Notes under the pieces: model-generated | Told to the model about the DNA's origin: nothing | The model's database searches: none | What the model saw: only the letters and a program-made list of their open reading frames with translations | In this document: one piece after another, positions 5,346 to 61,564 of the stretch | Layout: each line of letters opens with the position of its first letter | Numbering within the stretch: position 1 is the first letter of the stretch | Translations under genes and position numbers: made by a program | Assembly: GCF_039555335.1 (NCBI RefSeq) | Contig: NC_092646.1 | Location: 36,795,911 to 36,859,910, forward strand | Reading direction: 5' to 3' | Source of the DNA: Amphiura filiformis | Lineage: Eukaryota | Length of the DNA: 64,000 nucleotides

Positions 5346-5351
5346 TATAAA
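5346..5351 (+). promoter_or_regulatory. TATA box (TATAAA) 62 bp upstream of the copy 1 ATG
   Basis: gttataaatgcttgcc. A TATAAA at identical spacing (-62) stands upstream of the copy 3 ATG (35351-35356). The surrounding sequence is conserved between the paralogs. Confidence 0.55.
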
Positions 5352-5407
5352 TGCTTGCCTATGTGAACTAACTGTTCCATTATGTTGATACAGCTTATGG
5401 AATAATC

Positions 5408-6149
5408 ATGGCGCATGCAATACTGTGCAGTTTTCTTTTTGTGAATGCATTTTTATACGCACCAACTGTCTACGGATACCGAGACCTGAACAGAAATGCT
5501 TCGAGGTACATTGAAAGATTGTACGAAACCTTCCAGGGTCAATTCAATGCAACACGTACGAGACTCAACTTGAATTCGGTTCAATTTGGTGTTTTAACAA
5601 TGGGCAAAATATCATACAGAATTGGCGGCAGAAATGATTTTCGTCCGCTGCCTCTTACTTTTTCCAGTACCCTCCCGTGCACAAATACATGCCGCCCGTA
5701 TGGCTGGTATCGTATAGGTCTGCCTCCACTTGCAAACTACCACGCTGCTGTTCCAACACGCTTAGGGTCACATAATAAGACCCATAGCGAAATGCAGTTG
5801 ATGGACGCCTTCGATAAATTGATAGATACTCTTTCGTATCAAGATTTAACAGATGCCTACATACTAACATACTTCAGTCCATGCACTGAATGTGCTGAGA
5901 GACTACGAAGTCTGGCGCAACGATTTAATAATAGGCGGCGTCTTATTAACTTCCACGTTGGTTACATGAGGGAATATGAGGAGCCAATGCAGCAACAGGA
6001 CGGGTCTTGGATACGACTGCCTACCCTGGCTAGAACTGAAGAGATTCTTCGGAATTCGCAGAACGTCTTCTTTGGAAATGTAAGACGTTTCTGTCAGCCG
6101 AGGCAAAAACGGAATGCTAATGATGTCTCTATCATATGTGACCTTCCTG
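5408..6149 (+). CDS. Copy 1 exon 1: signal peptide + cytidine-deaminase-fold (AID/APOBEC-like) domain + RQKR furin-type site; ends at GTAAGA donor (phase 1)
   Basis: ATG at 5408. The hydrophobic N-terminus is MAHAILCSFLFVNAFLYA. There are N-x-S/T sequons. Zinc-ligand motif H126-S-E128 (5783-5791), then 29 aa, then P-C159-T-E-C162 (5882-5893) in the context YILTYFSPCTECAERL, which resembles the SWSPCxxCA of AID/APOBEC. RQKR lies at 6101-6112. The donor ctg|gtaaga at 6150 is conserved in all three deaminase paralogs, after which similarity stops. The six-frame ORF runs on past 6149 only because there is no stop codon until 6256. Confidence 0.65.
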
Positions 6150-9100
6150 GTAAGACTTTAAAACTTAAAAGGTTTTTTTTTCTAAACTTGCATGAATCGA
6201 ATGTTCAGGAAAACAATACCATATCGATTTGTATGCGCTCTTTAGCAAAGTCATAGTTCATTGAATTTACAACTGTATGACAAAACAGGCGAAAATAGGA
6301 ACTTTTTGCACAAGATTTGCAATTTAAAGAGAAATGACCATTGCTCATTAAAGTGACGCTGGTATATGGACAATAAAAGTGTGCTTTTTCATTTAATGAC
6401 ATAAAATTTGAAAAATATTGTAAGGTTTTGACTTTTAAAACCTACATTTTTGTCAAAAAATGTGCTTGGATAGGTAGTTTTCAACAGATTTACCACATTC
6501 GCCTTGCTTTAACATTGAATTGCGTTATCTGTTGACCTAGTGACGAAAAGTGTTTTTAGGGGAAATGAAAAAAATGAAAAAATTCTGATTGGATGAAGGA
6601 ACATTTGAGGTTTTGACAAAAACCAATCAAAGAGACCCATTTTTCAGCTAGAAGCTCCACAGCTCTTACATTGCTATGCACTCACCCGTGTAGTGTATTC
6701 AAAGACTGTGCGGAGACAATTCACTGATTGCTTGAGAGCTCTTGGACGAAAATGTGTGCTCGGGTGCATCGAGGTAGAAACTGTGCGCATGATGGTTTAT
6801 AAGAGAATCGTTTTTGTATAGAAACATTTCCATATGCTAAAATGTGTATTTGCTATGGTAACAGGTTGGTTATATGAACGTTGCGCGAAATAACGTTCGT
6901 GAACCAATATTTTGTGGACCCTTTCTGAATTCGCAAAAATGAAGGTAGTATCTGATCTGTCAGCCGAGGCAAAATCGGTCTCGATGACTCACGGTTGTTT
7001 GACGATGTTATTTATTAATGTCTCTAACAAAACATTACATAATTAATTTCAATAATACTATTGTGACGATAATTCATTCGATAATTGAATATTGATCATA
7101 GTCCAGTAAGCCATGATAACCATTCATCAAGTGAACGTTTTTATATCCGTGCATCAATTGCACTGACTGATGCGATGTTATGTTTGTGCGTTAATAAAGA
7201 CTTCACTCCTTGTTAACCCTGCAACCGGTGTAGACGTGCCCAGGTTTGGCTCATGATGATTAGTTAGAATGGTCAACATGATCACCAATATATTGTCATC
7301 ATGTTTTGCACGTGAATCATATTCAATTATACTTATTATGCTACGATGTAACTCTGGTAAGACTTATTAACACACACCTTATGTATTTTGATCAGTTTGT
7401 CTGATGATGTAAATTCATAACAAATTCTTAAACTTAATTTCTGTTTCATTTGGTTCAGTTCGTGTTAGTCATTTCCTTTCCCGTTCATTATCCCTCATCC
7501 TTTGGGACTCAAAATCTGGTACCTGGCTCTGCTTTTCCTTGGACATGTTGGACTAATTCCTCAATTTAGATTCATAATAATACCTTTACAATAACAACAG
7601 TTATCAGACTAATATACACATACATTTTTAGCTATTTTTAACTTGGATTTTCTTTTTGTTATCAAATTTTTCATCTTTTGCTGTCTTTTTGTGGTAATCT
7701 TTATTCTAAAAACTGTATTTGTGTTCAAATTGAGGGCGCTATTTACATGTATTGTTAATCTAATTTGGCCCAATAATATGAATTATACCTTTCATTTCGT
7801 GATAAAAGGCAGTTTTAAAATGTCCTTGCTACATCCTACTCATTTGTATGATGTTTTAATGTCATTATACCAGTATTTACCACTTGTAAAGATGCAAACA
7901 AGATTTAAGATATATAGCGCCATCAGTGTTCAACGTTTCTTAACAATTATACAGTTCTCCGTGTCGTCAAACAACAGCGAACTGCATTACTGATATTAAA
8001 CTTCGCAGTCTCAAATATTTTCATCAACTAAATCTTGAAATCTTATGATGTATGCCTAATTAGCTGTCACTCTGATGAAATAGTGTGGCTAGTAAAATAA
8101 AAAATATTACACTTTTTTTGGTTACATTTTGCCTTCGCCATGCACACAATATTCGGCAAAAACGCCGACACCCGTTGACCTATAAAAGAAGTATTTTAGA
8201 AGTAAATATTAACATTCTTGCAATGACAAGTGTAACTATGGTAACAGGTACCCAAATTGTCGGAGTAAAATAGTCAATGTAACTTGAGCATGAGCACTTT
8301 ATTGATTTATTATTATTTACAATTGATTTATTCGAAGGTAACTTTTAACGTTTTCGCTAAGGTTACCTACGAATACATGGACAAAAACGACTGTTTTTAT
8401 TGTCTCACGATCTAAACAACACCGTGACGGACCTTGGTATAAAGCTGGTTGTTTTTGCCACAAGACTTAACTGACTCCAAGATAGACTTCACAAGTCTGT
8501 AATAACGATTTTAAGCGATTTGTGTGCAATCAAGCAAATTAAAGTCTTTTTAGCGTCTTTGTTTCTTACTTCAATCCTCATTCAACCGCTGTGAACCGAC
8601 ATTATTAATATATGATAGGGCCTTTATTATCAATAATCTCAGATAGAGAAAAGAATACATTCAAAGGGCTTTATAAAATGAAGATTTGATTGAGATATCC
8701 ACCAATAGTCTAATTGTTACCTAGAAATACTGAAATCTTACTTACGAATACAGTATAATAGTATAATACATGGCATTGTGCAATGAAGTGTCCCTACGAA
8801 TGGAAATTAATAGTCAAAAATGTAAAGTGGTACCCCGCACAATATTATTCTCCATATGCAGATTCATTCAACAATTATTTATTGCGTAAATTTGCTGTTG
8901 AAATATTTGTATATCGAAATGAAGTGTTCAAAATCTTGCTAAAAGCATCAAAATTTTGTGATCTAAGGTAATAACATTTATTCATTTGGACGTACCAGCT
9001 GAAACAGATCAAAAAACCGCCATTTTATCCAGTCATTAAAATATAGCAAAATTTGAACCTCTAAACTCAATATAGATATTGTTAAATCGATAACGTTACC

Positions 9101-59830: not shown

Positions 59831-60194
59831 CATTAACACACTCATTCATTCATTCAAAGCCATGAGATGAGCGCAGATAATGATCAGTTTGGCACATTTT
59901 CTTTGAGACCTCTCTGTCTATCAAAGAAAGTTACTCAGCCGTGGAATAAGTTATCCTCACAAATGACAGTGGTGTACCGTGGCCGCCCCAACCCCGGGGG
60001 GCTGAAGAAAATTCAATTTTGCCGCCCTTCCTCAACAGCCCGAAAAGGTTGACCCATTTTTTCTCGGACGTTTGAAAAAGTGAGGAGAAAAAAAAGAAAA
60101 AAAAAAGAGTTTCAGGTGCTAGCGCCCTAAAAGCAGCACATTTTGATGTATAGTACCATTTTTTTCACAATTTTTTATGCTTTATCAAATTTTT

Positions 60195-60330
60195 CCGCCC
60201 TTTTTGATGTACTAATTCTTTTTGCCGCCCCTTCGTTTTAGCCGCCCCTTCTTCTTCTGCCGCCCCTTCATTTTGGCCGCCCCTCCTTTTACCCCGGGGG
60301 GCTGGCGCCCCCAAAGCCCCCCAAAATACG
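60195..60330. repeat. Cluster of 5-6 GCCGCCCCT (GC-box-like, reverse complement AGGGGCGGC) motifs plus two ccggggggctg motifs, ~550-650 bp upstream of copy 4
   Basis: ttccgccc ... tttgccgcccct ... agccgcccct ... ctgccgcccct ... ggccgcccct ... accccggggggctggcgccccc read directly. This is an island of G+C in AT-rich surroundings. Confidence 0.4.
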
Positions 60331-60849
60331 CGCATGAATGAGGTGTCATTGTTGACAAGAAATAACAATGTTTTCACTGATATGAAACAATATACGTTTT
60401 TTGAAAGTTTCCAAACTTATTTGAGGAGTTTATTTAAGTTACAGTTTAATAGTTCTTTAACTTCAATTTCAAATGTATTTCGTCCACTGAGAGATAACAT
60501 TAAAGGAGTACTGACTATTAGTAGGATATCCTTCAAATGCGTTTTGTTTTTCGGAAATGTGTTTTGCATTTGTCATGCACGTACGCCACTATGTGTTTGG
60601 GACCGACGAAATAAATAGAACATGAATAATTTACATATTTTATCTGTAAATAATTTACTTGTTTTGATGATGTGCAGACTTTGTACTTTTTATTTATCAG
60701 TGAGTGGCTGCGTGATATACACACAGGGCTTACCCATTGGCTGAATGCTCTATTGAGCCGTGACATCATATCTAATTATCAGATGTCCTCATTGCAATAG
60801 AGATAGTCTGTAATATTTCCTTCTATTTGCTGCTGTTTATCGAATAATC

Positions 60850-61564
60850 ATGGCGCTTACAATACTATGCAGCTTTCTTTTAGGGAGTACATGTTTATAT
60901 GCTTCAACTGTCTACGGATACCAAGACCTGAACGATAATGATGCGATGTACATTGAAAGATTGTACGAAAACTTCCAGGCCCAATTTAATGCAACACGTA
61001 CGCGTCGCAACCTAAATGCGGTACAGTTTGGTGTTTTAACGATGGGCAGAATAGAAAACAGCAATAATTTTCGTCCATTGCCTCTTACATTTTCCAGCAC
61101 CCTCCCATGCGAGACTACATGCCGTGCGCACGGACTAATAGACCAACCTCCAGCTCCAAACTACCACGCTGCTGTTCCAACACGCTTAGGGTCACATACT
61201 AGGACCCATAGCGAGGTCCAGTTAATAGACGCATTTAATCGGTTAATATATGCTTATGAAGATTTAACAGATGTCTACATACTAACATATTTCAGTCCAT
61301 GCCCTGAATGTGCTGAGAGACTGCGAAGTCTGGCGCAACAATTTAATGATAGACGTCTAATTAACTTCCACATTGGTTACATGCGGGAATATGAGGAGCC
61401 AACGGCTCAATTGGACGGGTCCTGGTTACGAATGCCTACCATAGATAGAACTGAAGAGATTCTTCGGAATTTGCAGAACATCTTCTTTGGGAATATAAGA
61501 GGTTTCTGTCAGCCGAGGCAAAAGCGAAATGCAAATGATTGGGCCATCATTTGTGACCTTCCTG
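60850..61564 (+). CDS. Copy 4 exon 1: signal peptide + deaminase-fold domain + RQKR site; GTAAGA donor; the remaining exons lie beyond the window
   Basis: N-terminus MALTILCSFLLGSTCLYA... The zinc motif is HSE...(29 aa)...PCPECAERL. RQKR lies at 61516-61527. The donor is ctg|gtaaga at 61565. There is no canonical TATA at -62 in this copy. Confidence 0.65.

Follow-up and report, generated by a model that had tools for sequence, protein, structure and literature searches.

A tandem gene family of Amphiura filiformis predicted to encode a secreted AID/APOBEC-like deaminase joined through TSP1-type repeats to a Hedgehog-type Hint domain

We analysed a 64,000-nucleotide window of the brittle star Amphiura filiformis genome (contig NC_092646.1, positions 36,795,911 to 36,859,910 of the forward strand), which contains four tandem units on the + strand built from a deaminase exon, two thrombospondin type 1 repeat (TSR) exons (TSR-A and TSR-B) and a Hedgehog-type Hint exon. 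We consider it likely that these units represent a lineage-specific A. filiformis family encoding a secreted precursor, which would consist of a signal peptide, an AID/APOBEC-like deaminase (AAD), an R-x-K-R site between cysteines, a TSP1 repeat, a degenerate repeat and a Hint domain with a short adduct-recognition tail. The deaminase-TSR-TSR-Hint fusion, which a preliminary description had proposed from the DNA alone, was supported by the open reading frame (ORF) of copy 3, by the RefSeq protein XP_072019147.1 and by two contigs from elsewhere (L001 and L002). The architecture appears to be new and joins two known kinds of protein, the secreted AAD and the Hog protein; in RefSeq it appears only as "uncharacterized protein".

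Layout and splicing of the tandem array

The exons were located by tblastn and six-frame hidden Markov model (HMM) scans of the window. The results revealed the deaminase, TSR-A, TSR-B and Hint exons three times each, always on the + strand and in a recurring order. The three to four units of identical exon order envisaged in the preliminary description thus stood as to order and strand, except that copy 2 lacks exon 1 and only exon 1 of copy 4 lies in the window. Copy 3 alone is complete and intact. Its exon 1 (35413-36103) encodes a predicted signal peptide (residues 1-23), the motifs H118-C-E120 and P148-C149-N-D-C152, and the segment Cys216, R219-G-K-R222, Cys227. It is followed by TSR-A (41060-41218, 159 nt), TSR-B (42762-42929, 168 nt) and the Hint/Hog exon (48798-49456), which begins PSRS|C344-F, contains LHSKH (His428) and an APLRFLY-type tail, and ends in a stop codon at 49454-49456. 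Joined together, the four exons gave 1677 nt, an uninterrupted ORF of 558 codons plus the stop.

Copy 1 is frameshifted as assembled. Exon 1 (5408-6149) is open for 247 residues, with a hydrophobic leader taken as a signal peptide, the AID/APOBEC-like deaminase motif THSE...SPCTEC, the basic site RQKR and the phase 1 donor CDLPG|gtaaga. TSR-A (9661-9818), TSR-B (10619-10759, 141 nt, phase 1-1, a degenerate TSP1-like repeat) and the Hint/Hog exon (12850-13538, beginning PSCF, stop at 13536-13538) follow, and the boundaries previously assigned to this copy were each confirmed as a GT-AG junction. The accompanying claim that its pieces join in frame was refuted: with 158 nt, the copy-1 TSR-A exon is one base shorter than its 159-nt counterparts in the next two copies. 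The base is missing at ~9773 (GGAAATG-CCGGG), and because of this 1-nt deletion the copy runs out of frame into a premature stop. Copy 2 is 5'-truncated. Its TSR-A (26384-26542, 159 nt), TSR-B (27213-27347, 135 nt) and Hint/Hog (29196-29848) exons were identified, the first and last with intact reading frames, and HMM scans in six frames of the window found neither a remnant of its deaminase exon nor an alternative first exon. The expected site of that exon (~16.7-26.1 kb; near 17 kb by synteny) is filled by inverted repeats, a foldback-like element and a 150-bp satellite. Copy 4 is intact so far as seen: the window ends after its exon 1 (60850-61564), which is open as far as visible and encodes a predicted signal peptide and deaminase with HSE...SPCPEC, RQKR and CDLPG|gtaaga.

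The first exons of copies 1, 3 and 4 share the contents previously attributed to them, namely an ATG, a hydrophobic N-terminus, HxE...SPCxxC, R-x-K-R and the CDLPG|gtaaga donor. The TATA box belongs to copies 1 and 3 only: TATAAAT lies on the + strand ~60 nt upstream of the ATG in copy 1 (5346-5352) and copy 3 (35351-35357), and was not found before the ATG of copy 4. The Hint exons start with (P)SCF or PSRSCF, in agreement with the (P)SCF start predicted for the final exon. All exon boundaries are GT-AG, and the junctions are phase 1 by homology. At the junctions of exon 1, TSR-A and Hint, identity between paralogues was 75-91% on the exon side and 52-76% on the intron side. The proposed fall in conservation at each donor therefore held for these three exons and not for TSR-B, which showed no fall at its junctions and is as diverged as its introns.

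Splicing of the fused modules was corroborated by annotated proteins. The A. filiformis model XP_072019146.1 (318 aa) corresponds exactly to window positions 9692-9818, 10619-10759 and 12850-13535, and is spliced at the TSR-A to TSR-B to Hint junctions that had been predicted for copy 1. It starts at the ATG at 9692 in the wrong TSR-A frame, and its first 28 residues (9692-9775), MRRSVWRWGPIQNKEMLLRRRSTNREMP, are an annotation artefact because of the copy-1 1-nt deletion. A second model, XP_072019147.1 (500 aa, same 60-Mb chromosome), contains all four modules: the deaminase from an internal Met, then TSR-A, TSR-B and Hint, joined at CDLP|AFWG, QGCC|ESWG and CSGC|PSCF, which are the predicted junctions. 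It falls in the same 90% cluster as XP_072019146.1. Its identity to copy-1 exon 1 is 98%, but the window does not encode it, and it is therefore a fifth paralogue. The A. filiformis family thus has five or more members, four of which lie in the window. The RefSeq models of the cluster are incomplete, since one starts in the wrong frame and one lacks the signal peptide, and copies 3 and 4 are apparently unannotated by RefSeq. A protein search with the 558-aa copy-3 product retrieved three proteins among 5.8 billion clusters, XP_072019146.1 being one of the three.

Recurrence of the fusion in other genomes

A word-indexed protein search with the copy-4 deaminase returned no match, and the family emerged only in an exhaustive profile search over 1.84 billion representatives, which gave 25 matches in total, in four groups. 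One group consisted of ORFs with a signal peptide and a deaminase ending ...C[ED]LG|K (P0001, P0004); at these ends, ORF calling without splicing has run past the same donor. A second group showed a direct order of signal peptide, deaminase, RRR or KR, and Hint (P0009, P0010, P0016, P0023, P0031-33), with canonical Hog domains (GCFP, TxxH, FLDR, SCYA and GIHWY; Pfam 1e-53). Two of these direct fusions are single unspliced ORFs in large contigs (P0010, 454 kb; P0033, 213 kb), and two others (P0009, P0016) lie in contigs of 1.5-1.8 kb.

Another group was represented by P0035 (473 aa), a single ORF that comprises a signal peptide, deaminase, RKRKR, one TSR and Hint. It lies in a 2296-nt mRNA-like contig from another sample (L001) with 5' and 3' untranslated-region-like flanks, and is 43% identical to the copy-3 protein at 100% query cover. 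In a contig of another assembly (L002), the same four modules were found in order on one strand: deaminase (10079-10663), TSR (12504-12665), TSR (16443-16580) and Hint (17201-17848). Its Hint is 75% and its deaminase 37% identical to those of copy 3. Together with the direct deaminase-Hint ORFs in large contigs, this bears out the arrangement beyond the brittle star window. The deaminase-Hog pairing thus recurs across genomes, and a single faulty gene model does not account for it. A frameshift lies at 10640-10740 of L002, between the deaminase body and the conserved RKRNANDCPIICELPG tail; at the 3x coverage of this contig, an error and a pseudogene are indistinguishable.

A further group of matches was a deaminase-galectin fusion (P0007, Gal-bind_lectin 7e-16). 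This family is tandemly duplicated (10001-11185 and 18595-19611) in a 2.5-Mb contig (L004, ENA ERZ25072258), and the galectin is a second carbohydrate- or surface-binding module joined to this secreted deaminase.

Properties of the deaminase, TSR and Hint domains

The N-terminal domain carries the zinc-binding H-x-E ... P-C-x-x-C motif in a deaminase fold. In an alignment of 21 homologues, E120, P148, C149 and C152 were invariant and H118 nearly so, and the length differences between deaminase paralogues fall between conserved alignment blocks. The Pfam APOBEC_N model scored 26.3-26.4 bits for copies 3 and 4 and 20.4 bits for copy 1 (cut-off 25), and the SNAD4, NAD1, APOBEC2 and APOBEC3 models placed the window deaminases just under their cut-offs. 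Across the family, SNAD4, NAD1 and APOBEC_N matched 17-18 of 21 members at E<=1e-3. The SNAD4 cut-off (27 bits) was passed only by the relatives P0001 (34.8), P0008 (33.6) and P0007 (28.7), the window copies reaching 19-25 bits. A profile of the 21-sequence family searched against the PDB gave APOBEC3G as the best match (1e-10), and the top-ranked matches were all APOBEC3G, 3H, 3F or AID chains, with a few unrelated chains lower in the list. The AlphaFold2 model of the copy-3 deaminase domain (predicted local distance difference test score (pLDDT) 83, predicted template modelling score 0.81) contained a strand at 167-174, an inserted hairpin, a helix at 194-202 and a strand at 207-211; this order of elements is compatible with an AAD helix 4 between strands 4 and 5. 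These results support an AID/APOBEC-like, probably zinc-dependent deaminase, which may act in C-to-U deamination.

All full-length homologues share a hydrophobic leader. In the predicted signal peptide, residues 3-17 are uncharged and hydrophobic (mean Kyte-Doolittle 1.7-2.2); a polar stretch and a site of the type TVYG|F come next. In most family members the deaminase domain ends with the pattern Cys - x(2-10) - [RK]-x-[KR]-R - x(2-6) - Cys, represented in copy 3 by the putative furin-type loop C216...R219-G-K-R222...C227 (residues 216-227, window 36058-36093, + strand), a sequence pattern. A basic site between two cysteines leads us to predict nicking in the secretory pathway.

Pfam TSP_1 scores for TSR-A were 35-42 bits (cut-off 21.6), with 41.6 bits in copy 2 and 35.1 bits in copy 3. 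TSR-B scored 23.6 bits in copy 2 and 11.6 bits in copy 1 and had no Pfam match in copy 3, although it retains WGSW.EC (WGSWGEC in copy 3) and the terminal cysteines. Because TSR-B exceeded the threshold in copy 2 only, the first TSP1 repeat alone is secure, and TSR-B is best read as a degenerate second repeat. The same type of TSR plus Hint cassette was observed in the A. filiformis proteins XP_072014457-9 (P0036, P0039 and P0040), encoded on another chromosome. Aligned in full, it shares 52-56% identity with copy 3 or its paralogue (65% in the best local match), and it is preceded by a different N-terminus of ~250 aa with no Pfam match and an EGF-like domain. Since this N-terminus differs, the TSR-Hog cassette has been paired with more than one cargo.

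The C-terminal domain matched Pfam PF01079 (8e-18 and 1e-17), and HMM searches favoured the deaminase, TSR and Hint assignments alike. Hedgehog was missed when the Hint exon alone was run against the PDB with phmmer, and a profile was needed: an eight-sequence Hint profile matched human SHH (8.5e-25) and Drosophila Hh (3e-24). The best structural match to the AlphaFold2 model of XP_072019147.1, in which the TSR-A region and the linker are of low confidence, was 1AT0 (TM 0.76). The Cys-Phe start and the His of TxxH were invariant in the Hint alignment. The tail (~45 aa) is helical and contains APLRFLY as in Hh, with GIHWY absent. Of the Pfam matches listed (E up to 1), none belonged to a Hedge-domain family; the N-terminus is formed by the deaminase and TSRs.

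Interpretation, related systems and repeat content of the window

The architecture suggests a mutator effector that would process itself and might be tethered by a lipid. As in Hedgehog, Cys344 at the S|CF junction would attack the S343 carbonyl in the endoplasmic reticulum to form a thioester, which a sterol, another nucleophile or adduct, or water could then resolve. The expected products would be a ~37-kDa deaminase with TSRs, possibly C-terminally lipid-tagged, and a ~24.5-kDa Hog fragment. A proprotein convertase could then nick RGKR222, and the 23-kDa deaminase would be either released or held by a disulfide (Cys216-Cys227) to the TSR piece, possibly a binding or anchoring part; in the direct fusions a short, perhaps lipidated peptide would take its place. 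Targeting could plausibly be provided by the TSRs and, in relatives, by the galectin domain. The enzyme might deaminate cytosine in nucleic acid outside the producer cell or inside a target cell, and could serve as an effector in defence or conflict.

Several observations weigh against this interpretation. Copies 3 and 4 are without direct transcript support and their products are absent from the protein collection, and two of the three units readable through to Hint (copies 1 and 2) are defective, copy 4 not being judgeable. Individual Pfam AAD models score the deaminase at or below threshold, and the signal peptide was assigned by composition only. The disulfide across the furin loop is conjectural and falls in a segment with pLDDT < 50. 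In the window Hint domains, TxxH has His for Thr (LHSKH), the second conserved Cys is lost (SCYA to SVHM), and FLDR is changed to FISHEDE, which leaves an acidic residue near the position of the sterol-activating Asp in an ambiguous alignment (HEDE). The tail matches part of the Pfam SRR region (match positions 11-161 or 12-183 of 213). Because of the altered TxxH, SCYA and Asp position and the short tail, autocleavage by the window Hint, though likely, is uncertain, and cholesterol transfer is doubtful.

Those Hint changes bear most directly on the possibility that the fusion is real and the Hint domain no longer autoprocesses, or hydrolyses without lipid. The protein would then be secreted whole or cut, with the Hog part as a folding, trafficking or binding module; the furin site already offers a separate route to free deaminase, and the Pfam Hint/SRR match is partial. 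We regard this as possible, though not probable, given that the Cys-Phe nucleophile and catalytic His are invariant, the APLRFLY motif and C-terminal helices remain, the direct-fusion relatives have the canonical Hog motifs, and the Hint exon is the most constrained part of the gene: pairwise dN/dS (nonsynonymous to synonymous substitution rates) was 0.18-0.22 in Hint, compared with 0.34-0.69 in the deaminase and ~0.5-1.25 in the short TSR exons. It is unlikely that the deaminase fold is something other than a nucleic-acid mutator, acting on nucleotides, nucleosides or another small molecule, or serving as a Hedge-like non-enzymatic ligand. The sequence profiles specifically pick AID/APOBEC families, the SPCxxC context is that of an AAD, with which the modelled helix between the fourth and fifth strands is compatible, paralogue indels lie in loops as in fast-evolving AADs (PMC5889660), and the conservation of HxE and PCxxC indicates that the domain is an enzyme.

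The defects of copies 1 and 2 could alternatively mean that the array consists of pseudogenes in decay and no longer has a function, a view that also draws on the retrotransposon in copy 3 intron 3, the TSR dN/dS near 1 and the lack of a copy 3 or 4 product in the protein collection. We judge it quite improbable: copy 3 maintains 558 codons over four exons, exon 1 of copy 4 is open and so is the paralogue outside the window, no catalytic residue has been lost, dN/dS is low in Hint and below 1 in the deaminase, and other species retain the family. Each unit might instead hold two genes, a single-exon secreted deaminase and a separate TSR-TSR-Hint gene, with the fusion being a modelling artefact. 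In line with this, the exon-1 ORFs read 20-105 nt beyond the donor to a stop (5408-6256, 35413-36123 and 60850-61632), the RefSeq copy-1 model contains TSR-A, TSR-B and Hint only, and several database homologues are deaminase-only ORFs. However, it is the 1-nt deletion alone that puts the start of that RefSeq model in the wrong TSR-A frame, the TSR-A exons offer neither a usable start codon nor a signal peptide, and the deaminase-only ORFs end where the donor has been read through. XP_072019147.1 and the L001 ORF join all the modules, direct fusions occur as unspliced ORFs, and paralogue identity falls right past the donor, which makes a two-gene arrangement highly improbable.

The proposed precursor resembles two families of secreted animal protein. 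According to the main text of Krishnan et al. 2018 (PMC5889660), secreted AADs comprise SNAD1-3 of vertebrates and SNAD4 of sponge only, with echinoderm AADs in the classical clade. Like the present family, SNADs have a signal peptide ahead of a zinc deaminase of the AAD type, have expanded in tandem within particular lineages and diverge rapidly, with loops of varying length as described there; Pfam SNAD4 is among the best matches of the present family. Unlike SNADs, the deaminase here is the N-terminal cargo of a Hog protein and is followed by a furin site, and the window copies are under the SNAD4 cut-off. That main text makes no mention of a Hint or TSP1 fusion. Knowledge of secreted AADs comes from sequence only, and a 2024 review (PMC11004436) describes the protein properties, biochemistry and catalytic activity of secreted AADs as all unknown. 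Hog proteins (warthog, groundhog, quahog, Hoglet and the cnidarian Hogs), as surveyed by Buerglin 2008 (PMC2362128), likewise carry a secreted N-terminal cargo followed by a Cys-Phe Hint domain and an adduct or sterol tail, and their N-terminal part evolves faster than the Hog part. The family differs from them in that the cargo is a deaminase fold plus TSRs rather than Hedge, Wart, Ground or Qua, and in that TxxH has become HxxH. We also considered whether the "novel secreted N-termini" of cnidarian Hogs were this deaminase; the candidate was rejected, as the sequences inspected in the supplement of Buerglin 2008 (PMC2362128), which catalogues Hog proteins with many different N-termini, contained no HxE or PCxxC and included no deaminase. 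No published description of a deaminase combined with a Hog domain was found in searches that miss most subscription-journal papers, and the brittle-star genome paper mentions neither a deaminase nor a Hog domain.

A parallel exists in bacterial polymorphic toxins, whose deaminase toxin domain lies C-terminal to a pretoxin-HINT domain (Iyer et al. 2011, PMC3239186; Zhang et al. 2012, PMC3482391); both AADs and eukaryotic Hint are thought to derive from such systems (PMC3239186; PMC3482391). In each case a secreted protein pairs a Hint autoprotease with a nucleic-acid deaminase effector. In contrast to the toxins, the deaminase here precedes Hint, the Hint is PF01079 and not PT-HINT, and the gene is eukaryotic, spliced and TSR-containing. 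Among the long ORFs of the window, read by eye and not Pfam-scanned, no neighbouring candidate for a polymorphic-toxin immunity gene was seen. With respect to echinoderm enzymes, Liu and colleagues reportedly described, in Nat Commun in 2018, cytoplasmic AID-like deaminases of sea urchin and Lingula. These are said to resemble the present family as AID/APOBEC-like enzymes in an echinoderm with a link to innate immunity, and to differ in being without signal peptide, TSR or Hint.

The preferred reading, a secreted deaminase-TSR-Hint precursor, would widen the range of Hog cargo from signalling and matrix domains to an enzyme and would extend secreted-type AADs to echinoderms, in an architecture that mirrors the bacterial Hint-deaminase toxins. 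A deaminase carried as Hog cargo with adhesion repeats and a convertase site also provides concrete hypotheses for export, tethering and release. A-B toxins such as diphtheria toxin, the Shiga toxin A chain and Pseudomonas exotoxin A are nicked by furin inside a disulfide loop, and the same order of Cys, basic furin site and Cys between catalytic and binding or anchoring parts is seen here, as a sequence pattern only. A bolder proposal, which we hold to be doubtful, is that Hog acts as a general lipid-tagging device for an immune effector. The product would be a sterol-anchored, furin-nicked deaminase of two chains held by a disulfide, resembling an A-B toxin; the TSRs or galectin would bind the surface of the target, and reduction after uptake would free the mutagenic enzyme in a pathogen, parasite or competing cell. 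If true, this would be the first animal Hedgehog-type protein with a nucleic-acid-editing enzyme as cargo, and a eukaryotic re-invention, with reversed polarity, of the bacterial Hint-deaminase toxin.

The window DNA is AT-rich (GC 30-45%), and no tRNA genes were found within it. Intron 3 of copy 3 is 5.9 kb long because it harbours a long terminal repeat (LTR) retrotransposon on the - strand (43145-47581; LTRs 43145-43304 and 47422-47581, 98% identical), with pol ORFs at 45669-46376 (RVT_1) and 43814-45574 (RNase H and integrase); the element is not part of the gene. The expected site of the copy-2 deaminase exon is flanked by two inverted repeats (16750-17156 versus 25651-26024 and 17173-17401 versus 24157-24386), which enclose 8.4 copies of a 150-bp satellite (17989-19238) and also a 178-bp repeat (19605-20038). 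A large insertion may have formed the region 16750-26024, or exon 1 of copy 2 may have been lost there by rearrangement. A 360-bp element is common to the copy-2 upstream region (17396-17755) and copy 3 intron 1 (41446-41806), and its matches in both orientations (94% and 80%) suggest a foldback or miniature inverted-repeat transposable element-like repeat. Other repeats included an 830-bp inverted pair (2023-2854 and 3385-4208, 91%), an 890-bp direct pair (31173-32060 and 32285-33163, 96.5%), tandem units of ~580 bp (50309-52127) and a 377-bp unit in 1.9 copies (52840-53579). The other long ORFs of the window resemble remnants of repeats or transposons.

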